Source of the DNA: a virus
Taxonomy: Duplodnaviria; Heunggongvirae; Uroviricota; Caudoviricetes
IMG/VR virus record: IMGVR_UViG_2617270964_000006
Coordinates: 1-19,599 of that record
Reading direction: 5' to 3' (one strand)
Length of the DNA: 19,599 bases
The position numbers and the translations under genes are program-made. Shown one piece after another: positions 6,622 to 16,443 of the stretch (its first letter is position 1; the number at the start of each line of letters is the position of its first letter). The notes under the pieces are model-generated. The model made no database searches and was not told where the DNA came from. It was given only the letters and a program-made list of their open reading frames with translations.

Positions 6622-8373
6622 ATGATTCAGGACGCTTTTGTGCGCCAGCGTGCGCGGCAACTTTACTGGCAGGGTTATCCGCCCGCAGAAATATCACGTC
6701 TGATGGGAATAAACCCGAACACGATTTATGCGTGGAAAAAACGCGACCAGTGGGATGAAACGCCACCCGTGCAGCGTGTCACGCAGTCCATCGATGCGCG
6801 CCTCATCCAGCTTACTGAAAAACAGAATAAAACAGGCGGTGACTTTAAGGAAATAGACCTGCTGACCCGGCAGCTTAAAAAAATGCATGATGGCCAGCCG
6901 GATGCGACGGCCACAGGAAAGAAAGGCCGGGCGAAAAAACTCAAAAATCATTTCACGCCGGAACAGATTGCCGCACTGCGGGAAAAAATCATCAGCAGGC
7001 TGGAGTGGCATCAGCGGGGCTGGTTTGACTCCCTGACCCTTTGCAGGGAAGCCGGGATACGTAACAGGATGATCCTGAAATCCCGACAGATTGGCGCGAC
7101 CTGGTATTTTGCACAGGAAGCACTGCTGATGGCGCTGCGTGACGATGTGGCGCAACCTTACCAGCGTAACCAGATTTTTTTGTCTGCGTCGCGTCGTCAG
7201 GCGTTCCAGTTTAAAAGCATTATTCAGAAGGCTGCGGCTGAAGTTGATGTGGAGCTGAAAGGGGGCGATAAAATCATCCTCTCCAACGGCGCAGAGCTGC
7301 ATTTTCTTGGTACTTCTGCTGCGACGGCACAGTCCTACACGGGCAATTTTTATTTTGATGAATTTTTCTGGGTCAGTCGCTTTGCTGAACTGCGCAAGGT
7401 GGCTGGCGCTATGGCAACCCTCAGCGGACTGCGGCGCACCTACTTCTCCACGCCATCCACCGAAACGCACGAGGCATACGCCTACTGGAACGGCGACCGC
7501 TGGAACGAGAAAAAGGCCACGCATAAACGCCAGCGTTTTTCTGTGGACTGGAAAACGCTGCATAACGGGCTTATCTGCCCTGACCGGACGTGGCGGCAAA
7601 TTGTCACGCTGGAAGATGTGGTTAAACACGGCTGGAAACACACCGATATCGACGAAATTCGTGATGAAAACACCGAAGACGAGTTCCTCAATCTCTATAT
7701 GTGTGAGTTTGTCCGCGAAGGGGAATCGGCATTTAACCTGAATATCCTGATTGGCTGTGGTGTTGACGGATACGACGACTGGAAAGACTGGAAACCTTTT
7801 GCTCCCCGCCCGATGGGGAATCGTCCGGTATGGATTGGGTATGACGCAAACGGCAGTAGTGGCAACGGCGACAGCGGCGCTGTGTCCGTGGTGGTTCCTC
7901 CGGCTGTTCCTGGAGGCCGTTTTCGAACGGTGGAGACGCGACGCGTTCAGGGGCTGGAGTTTGAAGAACAGGCCAGAGTCATTGAAGAGTTCACGTGTCG
8001 CTACAACGTGGAACACATCGGCATTGATGTGACAGGCGGGAACGGGGAGGCTGTTTATCAGATAGTGAAACGGTTTTTCCCTGCTGCTATTCCGTACACC
8101 TTCACGCTGTCATCAAAACGGTCGCTGGTACTGAAAATGCTGCAAATAATGCGTGCCGGGCGGTGGGAATACGATCGCGCCGAACGCGAGCTGGTCGCGG
8201 CCTTTAACGCCGTGCGTAAGGTGAAAACACCGGGCGGCTTTATCACTTACGAAACGGACCGAGCGAGGGGGATCAGCCACGGCGACCTTGCGTGGGCAAC
8301 CATGCTTGCTGTCATTAACGAACCGATTGGCGGCGAAGGAGAAAACGAGCGTTTCACGGTTATGGAGTTCTGA
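6622..8373 (+). CDS. P: P2 gpP-like terminase ATPase (large) subunit
   Basis: 583 aa; GGGGGAG RBS; N-terminal HTH-like LYWQGYPPAEISRLMGINPNTIYAWKK and ATPase core; stop overlaps the Q start (TGATG). Confidence 0.95.
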   Translation: MIQDAFVRQRARQLYWQGYPPAEISRLMGINPNTIYAWKKRDQWDETPPVQRVTQSIDARLIQLTEKQNKTGGDFKEIDLLTRQLKKMHDGQPDATATGKKGRAKKLKNHFTPEQIAALREKIISRLEWHQRGWFDSLTLCREAGIRNRMILKSRQIGATWYFAQEALLMALRDDVAQPYQRNQIFLSASRRQAFQFKSIIQKAAAEVDVELKGGDKIILSNGAELHFLGTSAATAQSYTGNFYFDEFFWVSRFAELRKVAGAMATLSGLRRTYFSTPSTETHEAYAYWNGDRWNEKKATHKRQRFSVDWKTLHNGLICPDRTWRQIVTLEDVVKHGWKHTDIDEIRDENTEDEFLNLYMCEFVREGESAFNLNILIGCGVDGYDDWKDWKPFAPRPMGNRPVWIGYDANGSSGNGDSGAVSVVVPPAVPGGRFRTVETRRVQGLEFEEQARVIEEFTCRYNVEHIGIDVTGGNGEAVYQIVKRFFPAAIPYTFTLSSKRSLVLKMLQIMRAGRWEYDRAERELVAAFNAVRKVKTPGGFITYETDRARGISHGDLAWATMLAVINEPIGGEGENERFTVMEF

Positions 8374-9419
8374 TGAGCAGAAAAAATAAAAAAGTGCGCA
8401 TGAGTTCACGCATTGATCTCGCTGATGCGCTCAGGAAAGAATCATCGCTCAGTGCATTCACTTTTGATGGTCCTTATCGCCTGACCGGGCATGATTTGCT
8501 GGACAATATGTACTGTGCTGATAACGGGCGGTGGTATGAAACCCCGGTGGACTGGTACGGTCTGGCAAGAGCCGCCCGGCAAACGTCCTGGCATCAGTCT
8601 GCGCTTTACTTTAAGCGCAATGTATTGCTCGGTTGCTATATTCCGCACCCGCTGCTTTCCCGGCAGGATTTCTCGGCGCTGGCGCTGGACTGGTTTGTGT
8701 TCGGTAATGCATTCCTTGAGCTTCGAAGCAATATGCTCGGCGAACCGCTTAAATTACGGCACGCCCTGGCGAAATACATGCGACGCGGAAGCGATCTTGA
8801 ATCATGGTGGTATGTGCAGGATGGTAAGGACGCGTTTCAGTTTCGCCCTGGCAAAGTGTGCCACCTGATGAATCCGGATATTAACCAGGAAATCTACGGC
8901 ATGCCGGAATATCTCGGCGCATTACTCTCGGCCAGCCTGTCTCATTCGGCGGACATGTTCAGAAAACTGTACTACGACAACGGATCCCACGCCGGGTGCA
9001 TCATCTACATCGGTGCAGCGCAGGTAAACCGCGAAAGCATGGACTCCCTGAAAGAAACGCTACAGGGGGCACGTGGTGGTGGTGCGTTTAAAAACGTGCT
9101 CATTCATGCGCCCAACGGGGGCAAAGAGGGGGTGCAAATTTTGCCGTTCCAGCAGATCACCGCAAAAGATGAATTCATGAATGTTAAGGCGGCATCCCGT
9201 GATGATGTGCTGGCTGCGCACCGCGTTCCGCCGCAACTGATGGGGGCGATGCCGGGCGAAAAAAGTGCGTTTGGCGATGTGGAGAAGGCAGCGCGGGTTT
9301 ACGCAATTAACGAGCTGATGCCCGTCATGGAGGCTATGAAGCACATCAATGGCTGGCTTGGCGAAGAGGTGATCCGTTTTAACTCTTATGCTCTTCTTGA
9401 TGAAAAAACAGCCCCGTGA
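8373..9419 (+). CDS. Q: P2 gpQ-like portal protein
   Basis: 348 aa, translationally coupled to P; P-then-Q order on one strand, convergent with A, as in P2. Confidence 0.95.
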   Translation: MSRKNKKVRMSSRIDLADALRKESSLSAFTFDGPYRLTGHDLLDNMYCADNGRWYETPVDWYGLARAARQTSWHQSALYFKRNVLLGCYIPHPLLSRQDFSALALDWFVFGNAFLELRSNMLGEPLKLRHALAKYMRRGSDLESWWYVQDGKDAFQFRPGKVCHLMNPDINQEIYGMPEYLGALLSASLSHSADMFRKLYYDNGSHAGCIIYIGAAQVNRESMDSLKETLQGARGGGAFKNVLIHAPNGGKEGVQILPFQQITAKDEFMNVKAASRDDVLAAHRVPPQLMGAMPGEKSAFGDVEKAARVYAINELMPVMEAMKHINGWLGEEVIRFNSYALLDEKTAP

Positions 9420-9436
9420 TGGGGCTGTCCTTTTTA
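9402..9436. terminator. bidirectional intrinsic terminator between Q and the convergent 174-aa gene
   Basis: Stem ACAGCCCC (9408-9415) / GGGGCTGT (9421-9428), loop GTGAT, flanked by an A-run on one side and TTTTT on the other, so a U-tract follows the stem on either strand. Confidence 0.6.
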
Positions 9437-9958
9437 CCAGAGTTGAACCATTTTCTGGGTGCCGTCAGGCTTGAGATTATCAATTTCAGAGAGAACGTAA
9501 TATTGAATGGCTTCACAAACGGTGGTGTAGGGTGAATTACCTTCTTTAAGTGGCACGATATTATTATTAACGCGAACCTGTATTTCATCGTTATACATTG
9601 CGATCGAAACAGGAGTGTGCACGAACGCGACTTCGCCAGGTGTGTCGTCAACCACCGTTTCAATACTAAAAGTCAGTTTTCGCTCATCATTGCTGCCCCG
9701 TGCTTTGGGGGTAGCGGCAGGGATCTGGGATAAAGGCATTCTGCGAAATCCTTCGGCTGCTTCCAGTCCGCATGAAACGTAATGCTGGCGATTACCGTCG
9801 CTATCTGTCCAGGTCTGTGATGGCAGCTCCAGCGAGATTTCATAAGCATCAACAATGCCCTGGGCAAGGCGCACAAGCGGGGTCAGATCTTCATTGCGGC
9901 GAAAGCTCTCCTTTACCTGCTCCCGTTTTTCTCTTAACTGCTTGTAATTAATGACCAT
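9434..9958 (-). CDS. hypothetical protein (174 aa), orphan cargo gene next to the portal gene
   Basis: ATG at 9958 preceded by GGAGG 9 nt upstream; MVINYKQLREKREQVKESFRR...; no motif I recognise; composition visibly more AT-rich than the flanking structural genes. Confidence 0.6.
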   Translation of the reverse strand: MVINYKQLREKREQVKESFRRNEDLTPLVRLAQGIVDAYEISLELPSQTWTDSDGNRQHYVSCGLEAAEGFRRMPLSQIPAATPKARGSNDERKLTFSIETVVDDTPGEVAFVHTPVSIAMYNDEIQVRVNNNIVPLKEGNSPYTTVCEAIQYYVLSEIDNLKPDGTQKMVQLW

Positions 9959-10057
9959 AAGACAGCCTCCATTGATTTCTTTGCTCGTATTTTGCACTTA
10001 TGAAGTATGGTCGGCAAGGTGCCGTATCGCTGACGCGCTTCGCTTGTCTGCTGCTTC

Positions 10058-10086
10058 GCCGGGGCATAAAAAATTTATGCCCCGGC
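10058..10086. repeat. perfect 13-bp inverted repeat with 3-nt spacer
   Basis: GCCGGGGCATAAA-aaa-TTTATGCCCCGGC; no U-tract on either side, so a protein-binding palindrome or structural element rather than a terminator. Confidence 0.5.
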
Positions 10087-10385
10087 TCTCCAGCTCCTGT
10101 ATCAATCAGATAATTTCACGACGCCTTCCAGTTTATCGCCACCATCGACGGTCAGACTCTTACGCAATTCCACCGCGTTGACTGTATGTTCTCGCTGCCT
10201 CAGTGCGATTTTGACGGCCTTACCTTTCACCCCATCAAATCAAAAGCCCTCACGCCTTTTTCATGCTCAGCGTGAGAAATATGGCCATTCTGTTGTGTCT
10301 CTGCGACATCGTTCAGGGAATGCTATTTACCCCCTGAAACGCGGGCTGTTCCCCCGTCACCTGCGCGCAGAAAAAATGCGTTTTT

Positions 10386-10491
10386 TTGTGCACGCACGGA
10401 TCCTTGACGGATCCAGCCACCATGCGGGCTGGAAGGGTAAAAAGTCGTTCAAAAAAATTGTGCAAATTTGTGCACAATTGTGCATTGCGCA
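10386..10491. repeat. array of TTGTGCA heptamers with embedded palindromes
   Basis: TTGTGCA at 10386, 10458, 10468, 10478 (last three phased at exactly 10 bp); the latter two lie in the perfect palindrome TGCACAATTGTGCA (10471-10484); also GGATCC-TTGAC-GGATCC (10398-10414). Confidence 0.5.
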
Positions 10492-10565: not shown

Positions 10566-11084
10566 TCATTCGAAACTGGCAAGAATCTGTTCTCGAACAG
10601 AAGATTTCATCGTTAACCCACGATCTAGGAAAAATTGGAAATGCATTAAGGCTTGTTGTTTGTGGATAAGTCTCCTGTGCACAGCCTCTTGAAGTAGCCC
10701 TCCGTGGCGGGCGGCTTTTACACCGCGTTCCGCACACGTTTTATAAACCGCATTATCCGCCGAAAGACATGTTGCATCATGTATTCTCGCGTTAACAACG
10801 CAGCTTATGTCCGCATACTTCAATGCTCTCCTGCGATTTTTTATCTCAGCCATTTCAATAAAATGTTCAGGTTCGTAATCATTGGTGAAATTGTATGGAA
10901 GTTGCAGGCGTGTAAGCTGTTCCTGAACATCAAGATTGTATTTAGCTTTTAGTTCCTCGCAGACATAGGGGTCAATCCACACACCACCCGGGTAAATTTG
11001 CCAGATAAGATCTAAGCATTTACCTTCGTAAAAATCAGACAGTACATTCGTATCGATAACACATCTGGGGCATTCAAACGGCAT
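10566..11084 (-). CDS. PIN-like nuclease domain protein (candidate toxin/effector)
   Basis: ATG at 11084 with AGGAGG RBS, overlapping the upstream gene's end by 11 nt. MPFECPRCVIDTNVLSDFYEG... has the PIN strand-1 motif (V-I-D-T-N-V-L) and further acidic residues (CEEL, YADIS, IHDAT). About 172 aa. Confidence 0.6.
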   Translation of the reverse strand: MPFECPRCVIDTNVLSDFYEGKCLDLIWQIYPGGVWIDPYVCEELKAKYNLDVQEQLTRLQLPYNFTNDYEPEHFIEMAEIKNRRRALKYADISCVVNARIHDATCLSADNAVYKTCAERGVKAARHGGLLQEAVHRRLIHKQQALMHFQFFLDRGLTMKSSVREQILASFE

Positions 11085-12219
11085 CCTCTCCGGCCTCCTG
11101 TTCGTCGTACCATTCATCCAGAAGATTGCTGAGAGCTTTTCTGTCTAATTCTAAAAGTTCAGATATGAAGGTTTCCGACGCGGAACCGGCTTCCCATGCT
11201 TTACGCGATAAGACGGTTAGGCGGCCTTTATAATTTAGTGCTTCCCTAATGGGATTTGGCTCGTGTCTCTTCCAACCTTTACGATTGGCGGTTGCCCATA
11301 GGTATCTAGTGTTTTGTTGATTAATTAAATTACATTTACTAAGACGATCGATGATGCAAGTGGCTGATACTCTGAAAATGCTTTTTAGTCTAAGGACGGT
11401 TTCCTCATACGCCCATCCACCACCTTGCATGACGAATTGTTTTCGCAATGCGCTTTCTGGTACCAAAAAACAAGCAGCAAAGTGATTAGCAACTTTTTCT
11501 TCCGGTGAAATTGCTTTGCCATTGGTTTTATAGCTTTTAGCAGGGCCATCATACTCATCACGGTGGAAGATAAGATGAGCATATTCATGGCAAATACTGA
11601 AGATTTGACGTTCTATTGAAATGCTATCGTGAACATTTACATAAATCGCGGTACCGTATTTGTTCGAAAACGCAGAAAATCCGAATACCATCCCTTTATC
11701 AGTTTCTTCGCGATTGAACGGGATTACTCGAATATCCGATGCTTCCAAAATGGCTACAATGTCACCAACGCAAGTAGCGTTTCCTATACCAAGACGGAAA
11801 CGTTCTTCCATAGCCTTATCTTCGACTCTTCGCAAATCTTCTGCTTTGGCGGTAAAAATAGGCATTGAGTTAGGAAGATCTTCTGGCAAATTAGCATCTG
11901 CAGCTTCCTCAATTGCATTGATATTTTTTAACTTTTCAATCAACTCATTGCGAAGTTTGGCATCCAACAAATCCGGACTATCTGCTCGCATTGCAAAACG
12001 AAACTCGCCATCATCTTGCTCATAAAAATACCCGATAGGCTTATCGAAAATCTTGCAGAGCATGATGAGTTGGGTAACGCTTGGGACGCCTAGCGCCTGC
12101 TCAAACTTACTGTAGGTTTGACGAACAACACCGATCGCATCTGCGACGGCGCTTGCACTCATTCCTGCGTCGTTTCTGGCCTGAACCAAGCGTTCTGCTA
12201 TACGCTGTTGAATGTTCAT
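11074..12219 (-). CDS. XRE-family HTH fused to ImmA/IrrE-type (M78, COG2856) zinc metallopeptidase
   Basis: 381 aa; N-terminal HTH (RIAERLVQARNDAGMSASAVADAIGVVRQTYSKFEQ); HEXXH zinc site in SICHEYAHLIFH; AGGTGA RBS; AT-rich coding sequence. Confidence 0.85.
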   Translation of the reverse strand: MNIQQRIAERLVQARNDAGMSASAVADAIGVVRQTYSKFEQALGVPSVTQLIMLCKIFDKPIGYFYEQDDGEFRFAMRADSPDLLDAKLRNELIEKLKNINAIEEAADANLPEDLPNSMPIFTAKAEDLRRVEDKAMEERFRLGIGNATCVGDIVAILEASDIRVIPFNREETDKGMVFGFSAFSNKYGTAIYVNVHDSISIERQIFSICHEYAHLIFHRDEYDGPAKSYKTNGKAISPEEKVANHFAACFLVPESALRKQFVMQGGGWAYEETVLRLKSIFRVSATCIIDRLSKCNLINQQNTRYLWATANRKGWKRHEPNPIREALNYKGRLTVLSRKAWEAGSASETFISELLELDRKALSNLLDEWYDEQEAGEDAV

Positions 12220-12583: not shown

Positions 12584-12693
12584 TTTACGGGATTCTGAAA
12601 TCCCGTTTTCGCCTGTTTTGCGCGCGCTTCATATATCGCGGCGCGTTTTTTGCTCATTTACGGGATTTGTGAATCCCGTTTCTGTCTGTTTTT
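12584..12693. repeat. duplicated ~37-bp hairpin elements at the 3' end of gene A
   Basis: Copy 1 12584-12619 TTTACGGGATTCTGAAATCCCGTTTTCGCCTGTTTT; copy 2 12657-12693 TTTACGGGATTTGTGAATCCCGTTTCTGTCTGTTTTT (overlaps the last A codons); between them a GC-clamped AT-core hairpin followed by TTTTTT. Confidence 0.5.
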
Positions 12694-15450
12694 GTTTCCA
12701 CTGGTCAGGACACCCCGCAGCAGGTCTGCTTTGCGGCGGGCGCGTTCAGTGGTTTCACTGATTCTCTGTGCGTGCTCTGCGTCACGGATGGCGCGCAGCA
12801 TGTCAGAAAGCACGGTAACGGGAGTTTTCATGGTGTTCTGGTCCTGCTGAATTGTGGATGCCAGGCGTGCAGCGGCTTCAGGGTCTGATGCCCCGAGCTG
12901 TTTCAGATAGCTGGAAATCGGGTTATGGCGGATTTCCGTGCTGTTTACGCCGTGATTACGGCTCAGGCGCTGCCAGAGCTGCGTGATTCGGCTGTCCGGT
13001 CGGGTATCTGGTTTGCGTACAATTTCAAATCCCTGCGGTGCAATGATGCTGCCGTCAACGTACAGACTGCCGCCTCGTAACAGGTGCTGCATCTGCTGTT
13101 CACCGATATGCAGGCCGAGAGATTCGGCAGATTCCCGCCATTCTTTAGCGAGTAATTCGTGGTTATCAGGCAAAGGCCGCTGATGTTTGCGGCTCTGTGT
13201 CCAGCTCTGCATTTCATCGCTGCTGTTTTTTGTCTGTTTGTCACGAAGCGAACGCATCAGCGCCCGGCGTTCGTGTCGTTTCAGTGAGCGCATCCATTCG
13301 TTCACTTCAACGCCGTCAGGGAGCTGCGGCCACGGTGCTGGCCGTTCTTCCGGCTGTTCTGTCCCGTTGTTGTCCGTTTCCTGTACACGGGGACAGTTAT
13401 TGCCACGAGTCCAAGGGGCGGCAGGGCCGCCCTGAAGGTCAAAACCATTTTCGCGGGAGCTATCTTCCGCTTCCGGTTTGCGTCTTACCAGCTTCCAGTT
13501 ATCCGGATGCGTGCATACGCGGGAAGACTCCCCGATGAGCGGCGACCAGATCCCGTAAATCTGTACACTCTGCTCACCGTAATCGTTCAGTTCATCTGCG
13601 AGGTCGTAGGCGGTGCGAATCAGGTAGTCTTTGCGTGGAACAAGCACGCCACCCTGTTTTTCAATGTAGGTGGCAAAACACCCGGCATCAGCGGCAGCGA
13701 GTACCGCATCCATTGCGTCATCCTTCAGCCGTTGCGGGCCTTCCGGGTTGCGTGCCATCTGGCTGGCAAGGCGGCGCAGTTCACGCCACACCTGACGGGA
13801 GGGGATACCAAAGAACTGGAACTGGCGGATTCGGTGAAGGCGCGCCCAGCCGATGGCGCGTTCCACGCTCTCGGCCATTGATTTTCCGGTTTCGTGGTCA
13901 ACGCGTGGCTTGCCCGTTTTCGGGTCGATGCCATCCACGGCGCGGCTGTCCAGGTTCTTTCCGATGTAGGTGGCGATGTAGCTGGTTGGCGTGCCTTTTG
14001 AGCCGTCGACGTACTCCGCCTTAAAACGCGGAGTTATGTCATCGCCCAGCTCGTGGCGGTCTTCCTGAATGGCAATATCGCAGACGTGGGACACGATGGT
14101 TTCAATCTCGTCCGGATGTGCAAAGACCATCATATGCCAGTGCACAGTGCCGTCATGGTGAGGCTCCACCGTGCGGATGCCATACCAGCGCAGACCGTCG
14201 CGGTTCAGTTTTTTGCGGACCGCCGCAAAAAACGTGTTAACCAGATAATCGCTGGAGTCGCGCATGGTGGCCCCGTTCCATTTGGGGTTCGGATGACCGT
14301 TCTCTGTTGTAGCGTGGTATTTTGACGGGCAGGTGACAGTCAGAAACACCGCTCTGTCGCCACGGGCTTCGGCCAGAAGTTCCAGCCCCTTCATGGTGGC
14401 CATCATTTCTGCCTTACGGTGAACCGGGTTACTTACTCCCGCGTAATACACTGTCTCGAGATCAATCGTGAACCCGTCTTCGTTTTCCAGCATGAAACTT
14501 TTCAGGAAATCGCGTGTTTTCTCGCGCTGTGCGCGAAACTCGCTTAACGCGTCCTGGCTCAGATAGGGCGATGTTTTTCTGGAAACCAGACAGGCGGCGC
14601 GGAGTTGTTCTTCTCTCCACTCGCAACGTAACAGCCACAGTTTGCGTTTCCACCATTCCGCACAGGTCAGGCGAAGGATTGCGCCCGGCAGCAGTTCTGT
14701 GTCCGGTTCGTTCCTCCGGTCTTTGTCTGTTGTCAGTGCGTCATAATGCGGAGGCATGGCGTGCAAGTGTAACGCCATGCGGGCCAGCATCTGATACGCC
14801 TTCAGCGTTACATCCATGGTCAGCTCGCCATCAGTCGCGCCAAAACCATCGCAGAGTTTTTCGAAGGTGCTGCTGAACATCGCCGCCGTCATGGTGGCCA
14901 GCGTCTGTATCTGGTGTTTGTTGAGTTGCGGCAGGGAAAGCAAATCGTCCAGGCGTTCACGTCCGGCAAGGGACCGATAACCCGGTGTCAGCCAACGGCT
15001 GTCGGTGCGGTCCAGACGTACGAATATTTTGCGCAGGGTTCCGCGTGCATAGCGTTCCGCCTGCCAGCTCTTTTTGCCTTTCCGGCGATCGGCTTCCTGT
15101 TTTTTGCGCAGGAAGGAGAGGTGGCGAATAAGCGGATCGCGCAGATAGGACGGCAGCAGGCGCAGCGAGGCCATGGCTTCATCCACCGCGCCACGTGCCT
15201 GTTTTCTGGCTTCTCTGGCCAGTGTGATGGTTTTGTCCTGTTTTTCCTGTGCGTCCAGGCTTTTATTAATCAGGTTGCCCAGCGGCGTGGCGGAGAACGC
15301 CGCATCAGCCATTTCCTGGCGGCGCTCGTTCTCTGCCCGGTAGGCATCCAGCCAGGAGGAAAGCTCGGATTCAGGAGCGGGGATTCCCGTTCCTTCACGA
15401 CCCACTGCGTGGCGCGGTTGTTGCCAGTCCCTGATGTACTCTGCCGTCAT
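12658..15450 (-). CDS. A: P2 gpA-like rolling-circle replication initiator (HUH endonuclease)
   Basis: 930 aa; HUH motif in VEPHHDGTVHWHMMVF; convergent with Q across the cargo locus, as in P2. Longer than the ~760 aa I recall for P2 A, implying an extra C-terminal region. Confidence 0.9.
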   Translation of the reverse strand: MTAEYIRDWQQPRHAVGREGTGIPAPESELSSWLDAYRAENERRQEMADAAFSATPLGNLINKSLDAQEKQDKTITLAREARKQARGAVDEAMASLRLLPSYLRDPLIRHLSFLRKKQEADRRKGKKSWQAERYARGTLRKIFVRLDRTDSRWLTPGYRSLAGRERLDDLLSLPQLNKHQIQTLATMTAAMFSSTFEKLCDGFGATDGELTMDVTLKAYQMLARMALHLHAMPPHYDALTTDKDRRNEPDTELLPGAILRLTCAEWWKRKLWLLRCEWREEQLRAACLVSRKTSPYLSQDALSEFRAQREKTRDFLKSFMLENEDGFTIDLETVYYAGVSNPVHRKAEMMATMKGLELLAEARGDRAVFLTVTCPSKYHATTENGHPNPKWNGATMRDSSDYLVNTFFAAVRKKLNRDGLRWYGIRTVEPHHDGTVHWHMMVFAHPDEIETIVSHVCDIAIQEDRHELGDDITPRFKAEYVDGSKGTPTSYIATYIGKNLDSRAVDGIDPKTGKPRVDHETGKSMAESVERAIGWARLHRIRQFQFFGIPSRQVWRELRRLASQMARNPEGPQRLKDDAMDAVLAAADAGCFATYIEKQGGVLVPRKDYLIRTAYDLADELNDYGEQSVQIYGIWSPLIGESSRVCTHPDNWKLVRRKPEAEDSSRENGFDLQGGPAAPWTRGNNCPRVQETDNNGTEQPEERPAPWPQLPDGVEVNEWMRSLKRHERRALMRSLRDKQTKNSSDEMQSWTQSRKHQRPLPDNHELLAKEWRESAESLGLHIGEQQMQHLLRGGSLYVDGSIIAPQGFEIVRKPDTRPDSRITQLWQRLSRNHGVNSTEIRHNPISSYLKQLGASDPEAAARLASTIQQDQNTMKTPVTVLSDMLRAIRDAEHAQRISETTERARRKADLLRGVLTSGNKNRQKRDSQIP

Positions 15451-16125: not shown

Positions 16126-16302
16126 GATGTGGCCTCTCTGTTAGTTAGTTTTGAAAACTCACCATCCAGAGGTTCCAAGCTCGGGGTGGTGAGACGTACA
16201 GGGTTGGAACTACCGGCTAACAGAGGACCCGGCCCAGCTGATGCTGGCCCTGTACGCCCCACCATAATTCTGACGCGAAAAAGACGTGGCGATACGGCAC
16301 GC

Positions 16303-16325
16303 ACAAAAAAACCGCTGGCGCGGTT
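16303..16325 (-). terminator. intrinsic terminator-like hairpin
   Basis: AACCGC-TGGC-GCGGTT (16310-16325); on the minus strand followed by TTTTTTT (16309-16303). Confidence 0.45.
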
Positions 16326-16443
16326 GTGCGCTCTGTTAGTCTGCGGGGTTCCAATCCCGGCACCCGTTTTATGAGGTGCAGCGGAAATGTAACCTGACTG
16401 ATTGCGGCATGGCAAGCGGTTTTTTTGTGAGAACGGCATACTA

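Follow-up and report, generated by a model that had tools for sequence, protein, structure and literature searches.

A 628-bp accessory cassette beside the portal gene of a P88-like prophage carries a gene of the phrog_5091 family

The 174-aa gene and its surroundings

In this study, we analyzed a stretch of 19,599 nucleotides (nt) of viral DNA (IMG/VR record IMGVR_UViG_2617270964_000006), hereafter called the window, which is a P2-type prophage of the P88-like group (Xuanwuvirus, Peduoviridae). Our subject is a gene on the minus strand, next to the portal gene gpQ, which encodes a protein of 174 amino acids (aa). The gene is the payload of an autonomous accessory cassette, or moron, which as a whole is found in some prophages and missing from others that are otherwise nearly identical. 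The cassette and the adjoining portal gene comprise the following features.

8373 to 9419, plus strand: portal gene gpQ (Phage_portal match)
9402 to 10029, minus strand: inserted cassette of 628 bp, defined against P88, with the 5-codon portal tail EKTAP-stop, the terminator, the gene, its ribosome-binding site and its predicted promoter
9408 to 9428, both strands: bidirectional intrinsic terminator (inverted repeat I3)
9434 to 9958, minus strand: coding sequence of the 174-aa protein, from the open reading frame (ORF) and its translation; phrog_5091 member, 19.8 kDa, pI 5.0, net charge about -6
9970 to 9966, minus strand: ribosome-binding site GGAGG, read from the sequence, 7 nt 5' of the ATG
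9989 to 10017, minus strand: predicted sigma-70 promoter, with -35 TTGCCG (10017 to 10012), a 17-nt spacer and -10 CAAAAT (9994 to 9989)

The ORF runs from the ATG at 9958 to the stop codon at 9436-9434, and its translation reads MVINYKQL...VQLW. The original prediction, made from the sequence of the window alone, had described a 174-aa gene at 9434-9958 with an ATG start, a GGAGG ribosome-binding site, a terminator common with gpQ, and a composition richer in AT than that of the structural neighbours. The coordinates were exact and the ribosome-binding site was found where expected. The GC content is 47.6% in the gene, compared with 53.0% in the portal gene and 53.9% in the large terminase gene. 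A longer ORF of 187 aa, starting from GTG 9997, appears in the mechanical ORF list, and this GTG falls within the predicted promoter. It was rejected as the start and the ATG was retained, because all homologues begin at the MVINY/MTITY position.

The gene is convergent with gpQ, and a terminator hairpin lies between them. On the plus strand it was recognized by the terminator scan, and on the minus strand the T-run GGACAGCCCCATCACGGGGCTGTTTTTT was read directly. With T-runs on both strands of the hairpin, the terminator is bidirectional and common to the two genes, as had been claimed. The gene had further been placed between the portal gene and the cargo locus. This is right on the portal side; on the other side, a conserved non-coding block of 455 bp (10030-10484) intervenes, and the two-gene minus-strand cargo lies between this block and the replication gene gpA.

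For the promoter, the upstream regions of the E. coli alleles (85-100% protein identity) were aligned with those of the homologues at 60% identity. Only three elements are invariant in this footprint, namely CTTGnC, GCAAAAT located 17 nt on, and the GGAG of the ribosome-binding site, and the flanks of the 60%-identity homologues are otherwise unalignable with the E. coli alleles. The candidate promoter matches 8 of 12 consensus positions and was not listed by the consensus promoter scan of the upstream region. We infer from the footprint that the cassette has a weak predicted sigma-70 promoter of its own. The P2 late-promoter dyad TGT-N12-ACA was also considered as evidence of late regulation and rejected. 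It occurs at chance frequency and has no exact copy in the real P/O late-promoter interval, and is therefore uninformative on late regulation.

Protein family and predicted fold

The gene had been called an orphan, a description that has to be given up. The protein matches phrog_5091 (PHROGs v4) over its full length, with residues 1-168 aligned to positions 1-164 of the 164-position profile (E 1.4e-67). The relatives recovered by a word-indexed search were all close ones, from E. coli, Salmonella and Trabulsiella. A total of 89 clusters at 50% identity were detected by a HMMER profile search of 1.84 billion representatives (E <= 0.001). Most of these clusters are 155-175 aa in size and aligned end to end, and full-length homologues extend down to 23% identity in several genera. 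All 47 aligned relatives likewise match phrog_5091.

Scans of the protein and the 47 relatives against Pfam, NCBIfam and PADLOC returned nothing above noise; in PADLOC-DB v2.0.0 the protein itself has no match, and the relatives have single noise hits (E 0.009 or worse). The earlier statement that no motif can be recognized thus stands for Pfam, NCBIfam, PADLOC and the sequences of the PDB. A match to designed helical-repeat proteins in the PDB (E 1.9e-10, positions 125-168) was obtained with a profile of 11 homologues and was gone with the 47-sequence profile. It is therefore regarded as an artefact, and calls for caution about narrow profiles.

The conserved positions of the family are Y39, S42, L43, L45, W50, G55, Y60, V61, F97 and T101, together with a TV-x-DD-x-P-x-GG hairpin (D104-D105) and a VC-x-x-IK helix. 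No recognized catalytic or effector motif is found among the conserved positions of the aligned family. The structure was predicted with confidence as a two-layer alpha/beta protein, composed of an N-terminal helical hairpin, an antiparallel sheet and a C-terminal helix. Remote-homology search and structure prediction, which the original prediction had proposed as checks, revealed no recognizable fold relative of the protein. It contains no signal peptide, transmembrane segment or toxin-like domain, and the product appears to be a small, soluble, mildly acidic protein of the cytoplasmic type. Two candidate relationships were rejected, that to DNA-mimic anti-restriction proteins of the Ocr/ArdA type on the ground of charge, and that to phi80 Tai (orf63) by hhalign (probability 0.2%, E 0.34), which also rejected orf66.

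Family members are annotated as hypothetical in all sources, no homologue carries a virulence annotation, and no paper mentioning the accessions, the PHROG id or the FIG id was found. The lack of any annotated function would suit a non-functional or spurious ORF. Against this stand 23 distinct alleles, all intact at 525 nt, with a ratio of mean dN to mean dS (nonsynonymous and synonymous divergence) of 0.096 and a median dN/dS of 0.09 for allele pairs with dS above 0.05. The full-length homologues down to 23% identity, the confident structure prediction and the conserved ribosome-binding site and promoter elements also speak against a spurious ORF, which we regard as highly improbable. The gene is real and functional, and is kept by strong purifying selection.

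Boundaries and distribution of the cassette

Alignment with P88 places the left edge of the cassette inside the portal gene, five codons from its stop. The common residues LLD are followed by EKTAP-stop in the window and by TQPTS-stop in P88. The right edge lies at about 10030. The portal tail is linked to the gene, since EK(T/I)AP-stop was found in 46 of 46 loci with the gene and (T/I)QPTS-stop in 4 of 4 loci without it. From this complete linkage in the sample, it follows that the 628-bp unit from 9402 to 10029 moves as one piece. The portal codons at 9402-9419 are themselves cassette DNA and encode half of the terminator stem. Direct repeats flanking the cassette were not found, and there is therefore no transposition signature.

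In P88, P88_4B11, 520873, 500465-2 and Citrobacter phage Shae_phiSM, the portal stop adjoins the conserved block directly. The portal end and the conserved block are present in about 1146 of 5426 complete E. coli genomes, and the full arrangement with the gene in 397. Every other sampled row has an empty junction, with the flanks joined directly and spanning about 437 bp, so that about 65% of the E. coli genomes with this portal type (about 750 of 1146, judged from the sampled rows) lack the cassette. No third state was seen among the sampled E. coli rows; the slot in E. coli is therefore either filled or empty. Among phage records the gene is rare, being present in only 4 of 50,697. A tblastn search of isolated phages with a distant family member returned only the same four P88-like records, and scans of viral contigs with four distant members yielded one locus only.

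The gene does not behave as a core P2 structural or packaging gene, since P88, four further sequenced phages and about 65% of the related prophages lack it. This agrees with the original prediction, which had denied it a place in the core phage content. Three of the four features by which morons are known were observed outright, namely insertion between elements that are adjacent in relatives, an own terminator and a deviating GC content; the fourth, an own promoter, is indicated by the footprint only. Among 35 gene-carrying loci, the DNA between gpA and the conserved block falls into 17 unrelated cargo types, many of them with ParM/StbB partition genes, and the cassette is independent of this variable cargo beyond the block. 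The variability of the slot, which had been suggested as a point to examine, is thus of the filled-or-empty kind, and a turnover of multiple cargoes was not found in it.

A second, divergent family member lies directly upstream of the 174-aa homologue in two P88-like prophage contigs (L066, 4354-4857; L067, 4355-4858). This paralogue has 167 aa and takes the place of part of the conserved block; its identity with the window protein is 25% (BLASTP E 1e-8). Its two copies share 57% identity with each other, and it was found in 2 of 5426 complete E. coli genomes.

Genomic contexts of relatives

Every recovered context of the family is a temperate prophage. The family is confined to temperate phages of Enterobacterales, and the hosts of its members are animal- or insect-associated. 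In P2-type relatives, including the Salmonella-type (60% identity) and Morganella (23%) copies, the gene is located beside the portal gene and convergent with it. The copy in Trabulsiella directly follows gpA. Four independent loci in lambdoid prophages have the gene directly after the late antiterminator gene Q and before the holin gene, and in Edwardsiella it lies between the lysis genes and the terminase. The family therefore occupies classic moron slots, that is, Q-holin, lysis-terminase, and the place beside the P2-type portal (cosL-Q). Conservation as a core syntenic gene had been named in advance as an observation against an accessory role. The portal-side place is indeed kept in the divergent P2-like phages; it represents a recurrent insertion slot and not core synteny.

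Nearly all homologues are followed by a hairpin and a T-run. In the lambdoid prophages the gene comes after a pR'-like promoter (TTGACA) that lies immediately downstream of Q, and a terminator was found after the gene in all three lambdoid loci scanned, as well as before the gene in two loci (L012 and L016). For one locus (L019), the scan gave no further promoter-like match between the pR'-like promoter and the ATG, and expression there must therefore be Q-dependent and late.

These contexts bear on two alternative explanations. The product might be an optional accessory of the virion, of packaging or of assembly. It could, for instance, work together with portal, terminase or cos, or enter the cell along with the DNA as an internal head protein, as P1 DarA does. 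The phages that carry the family have portals from three unrelated families and different terminases, and the Trabulsiella copy sits beside gpA. Transcription in the P2 context would run against the late PQ operon from a promoter predicted to be of the sigma-70 type. The match to DarA is at noise level. In view of this, and of the absence of the gene from P88, other sequenced relatives and most related prophages, we rate a virion accessory as quite improbable.

The other alternative is a lysogenic-conversion or host-physiology factor outside phage conflict; it could act in virulence or fitness, for example, and be produced or released upon induction, as with stx or ctx. The Q-holin slot is the stx position in lambdoid phages, and the ctx cytotoxin gene of phiCTX sits in the cosL-portal slot, so that the family shares the slots of both. 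A Vgr-like gene is found among the payloads near cosL in P2-like phages of Ralstonia (PMC5694545), and the animal- or insect-associated hosts would also be in keeping with such a factor. A small acidic protein of the cytoplasmic type, which has no signal peptide, transmembrane segment or toxin-like domain and no homologue annotated for virulence, fits this role poorly. We consider a conversion factor of this kind improbable.

Conserved block and neighbouring genes

Outside the cassette, the window contains the following features.

6622 to 8373: large terminase gene gpP
10030 to 10484, no strand assigned: conserved non-coding block of 455 bp, probable cos region
10566 to 12219, minus strand: two-gene cargo
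12658 to 15450, minus strand: replication gene gpA (Phage_GPA, E 1.6e-129)
16182 to 16269, minus strand: C4 antisense RNA (78.5 bits)
16305 to 16379, minus strand: isrK Hfq-binding small RNA (72.4 bits)

The conserved block was found in 1142 E. coli genomes, and is 92-96% identical in P88, 520873, 500465-2, Shae_phiSM and P88_4B11. More distant P2-like phages and Enterobacter phage phiT5282H retain only the distal part of it (about 10330-10490), and the linear record of P88_4B11 begins and ends at the equivalent of 10439/10440. The P2 cos 19-mer GGCGAGGCGGGGAAAGCAC was not found in the window, even with 3 mismatches, and the only guides to the position of cos are therefore conservation and the termini of a single linear record. 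On these grounds the block at 10030-10484 probably holds cos. Palindromes are present within it, with perfect 13-bp arms at 10058-10086 and a TGTGCA-rich one at 10461-10484.

The cargo beyond the block encodes a 381-aa protein with helix-turn-helix (HTH) and M78 peptidase domains, and then a 183-aa PIN-domain protein, the two genes overlapping by 44 nt. The HTH-M78 protein matches the PADLOC models of RmrA, the RosmerTA antitoxin (E 2.8e-35), and the NCBIfam spr1629 repressor/antitoxin family (E 2.7e-24, below the family cut-off). The PIN protein matches Pfam PIN (E 4e-5) and, weakly, PDC-S70. The pair looks like a Rosmer-like toxin-antitoxin or defence system with a putative PIN toxin, and is a cargo type unique to the window among the 35 compared loci.

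Many relatives (L001-L003, L008-L010, L066 and L069) have a ParM/StbA and Plasmid_stab_B partition pair directly after gpA, which the window prophage does not have. About a quarter of P2-like phages carry a partition system (Rousset 2022, PMC9122126). The two RNAs listed above are Rfam matches at gathering score and lie next to each other in what is the early or regulatory part of the prophage.

Comparison with known systems and possible function

Morons, in the concept of Juhala and Hendrix, are exemplified by bor and lom of lambda and by gp15 of HK97. The present cassette resembles them in its single gene, its terminator, its insertion between neighbours that are adjacent in relatives, and its deviating composition, and probably also in having a promoter of its own, as predicted by the footprint. 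It differs from usual morons in that the final five portal codons are exchanged as well, with half of the terminator stem coded in that tail. The distant family members hold exactly the position of lambdoid Q-holin morons. However, the window copy belongs to a P2-type phage, is antiparallel to the late genes and has its own predicted promoter, and its protein is neither toxin-like nor secreted.

The site between cosL and the portal gene is a place of foreign-gene pickup in P2-like phages, according to a passage of PMC5694545 that cites Dodd & Egan 1996 and Nakayama 1999. The 174-aa gene is likewise of accessory character and occupies this very slot, between the portal gene and the probable cos block. 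The payload is different, as the slot in E. coli P88-like prophages is either empty or holds this gene, rarely together with the paralogue.

The interval between gpA and gpQ, with old and tin, is a defence hotspot of P2 (Rousset 2022, PMC9122126; Vassallo 2022, PMC9519451). The 174-aa gene lies inside the interval mined by Rousset 2022, where an entry of Table S5A gives WP_000236495 as 'hypothetical' with at least 167 occurrences; it is not in that paper's table of tested systems. The gene is set apart from the truly variable cargo by the conserved block, varies independently of it and matches no defence model. A further comparison is offered by Tai/Ati of phi80 (PMC11364771), where Tai is a soluble non-enzymatic protein that interferes with tail assembly and binds a phage structural protein. 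Tai thus offers a model of how such a protein could act. The 174-aa protein likewise appears to be soluble and non-enzymatic, and is also encoded at a moron locus close to the packaging genes of a temperate phage. The two are unrelated by sequence and by profile comparison, and the 174-aa gene has no partner gene for immunity beside it.

These systems suggest that the product might be a defence or exclusion factor of the lysogen, a single protein expressed constitutively that binds and poisons a component of a superinfecting phage, like P2 Tin or phi80 Tai. The position within the gpA-gpQ hotspot, the sigma-70-like predicted promoter with its terminator, the lower GC content and the patchy distribution all favour this, as does the precedent that soluble non-enzymatic defence proteins occur at moron loci (PMC11364771). 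Set against it are the missing PADLOC model match, an hhalign probability below 1% for phi80 Tai, the lack of an effector, transmembrane or enzymatic domain in the protein, and a slot that is only filled or empty, unlike the multi-cargo turnover across the block. In addition, the lambdoid homologues come after the late terminator and have no space for a promoter of their own, a poor wiring for expression in the lysogen. Lysogen defence is thus a rather unlikely explanation, yet one to be taken seriously.

We tentatively prefer a phage conflict factor made in lytic growth, which would act in counter-defence or as an inhibitor of a host factor. With the predicted promoter of the cassette, the gene in P2-type phages may be expressed independently of the late operons, and in the lambdoid relatives it would be wired as the first Q-dependent late gene. 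Neither a catalytic signature nor a signal for membrane insertion or secretion is seen in the protein, and for this reason stoichiometric binding to another protein is the most likely mode of action, probably as a dimer like the nearest fold analogues. Counter-defence is rated above lysogen defence because the lambdoid copies are wired for late expression only, several of them having no room for a promoter of their own. The whole chain, from cassette payload through protein binder and phage conflict factor to counter-defence or host-factor inhibition, is put forward at clearly less than even confidence. The original reading of the gene as a single-gene defence or anti-defence factor plausibly fits both the architecture of the cassette and the locations of its relatives.

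For the family as a whole, phrog_5091 may represent new single-protein conflict factors that have no fold relative. Its members would be small dimeric binders that neutralize a host immune sensor or effector, or a protein of a rival phage. Horizontal transfer between P2-type and lambdoid temperate phages of Enterobacterales would have brought them repeatedly into the slots of stx and ctx, and the rare tandem paralogues might reflect an ongoing arms race. We hold this broader proposal to be only a little short of an even chance.

Significance

A moron in a P2 insertion slot is already known as a kind, and the gene was catalogued as hypothetical. New in this study are the exact cassette edges, the linked portal tail and the binary distribution, with the cassette in 35% of related E. 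coli prophages. The promoter footprint, which points to a predicted promoter, the link to the lambdoid late-operon copies, and the lack of a fold relative as judged from profiles and the predicted structure, are also new.

The gene is carried by about 7% of complete E. coli genomes (397/5426), including the pandemic sequence type ST131 (O25b:H4) and the O26 and O111 lineages. The 628-bp cassette is a compact test case, with natural variants of near-identical prophages that have or lack it, so that one experiment, by deletion or by cloning, could reveal the function of a family found in both P2-type and lambdoid phages. If the gene proved neutral in phage conflict, it would be one more lysogenic-conversion moron. 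If it acts in defence or counter-defence, it would represent a new fold-level family in the arms race between phages and bacteria, and the cosL-portal slot, apart from the old/tin side of cos, would carry functional cargo.
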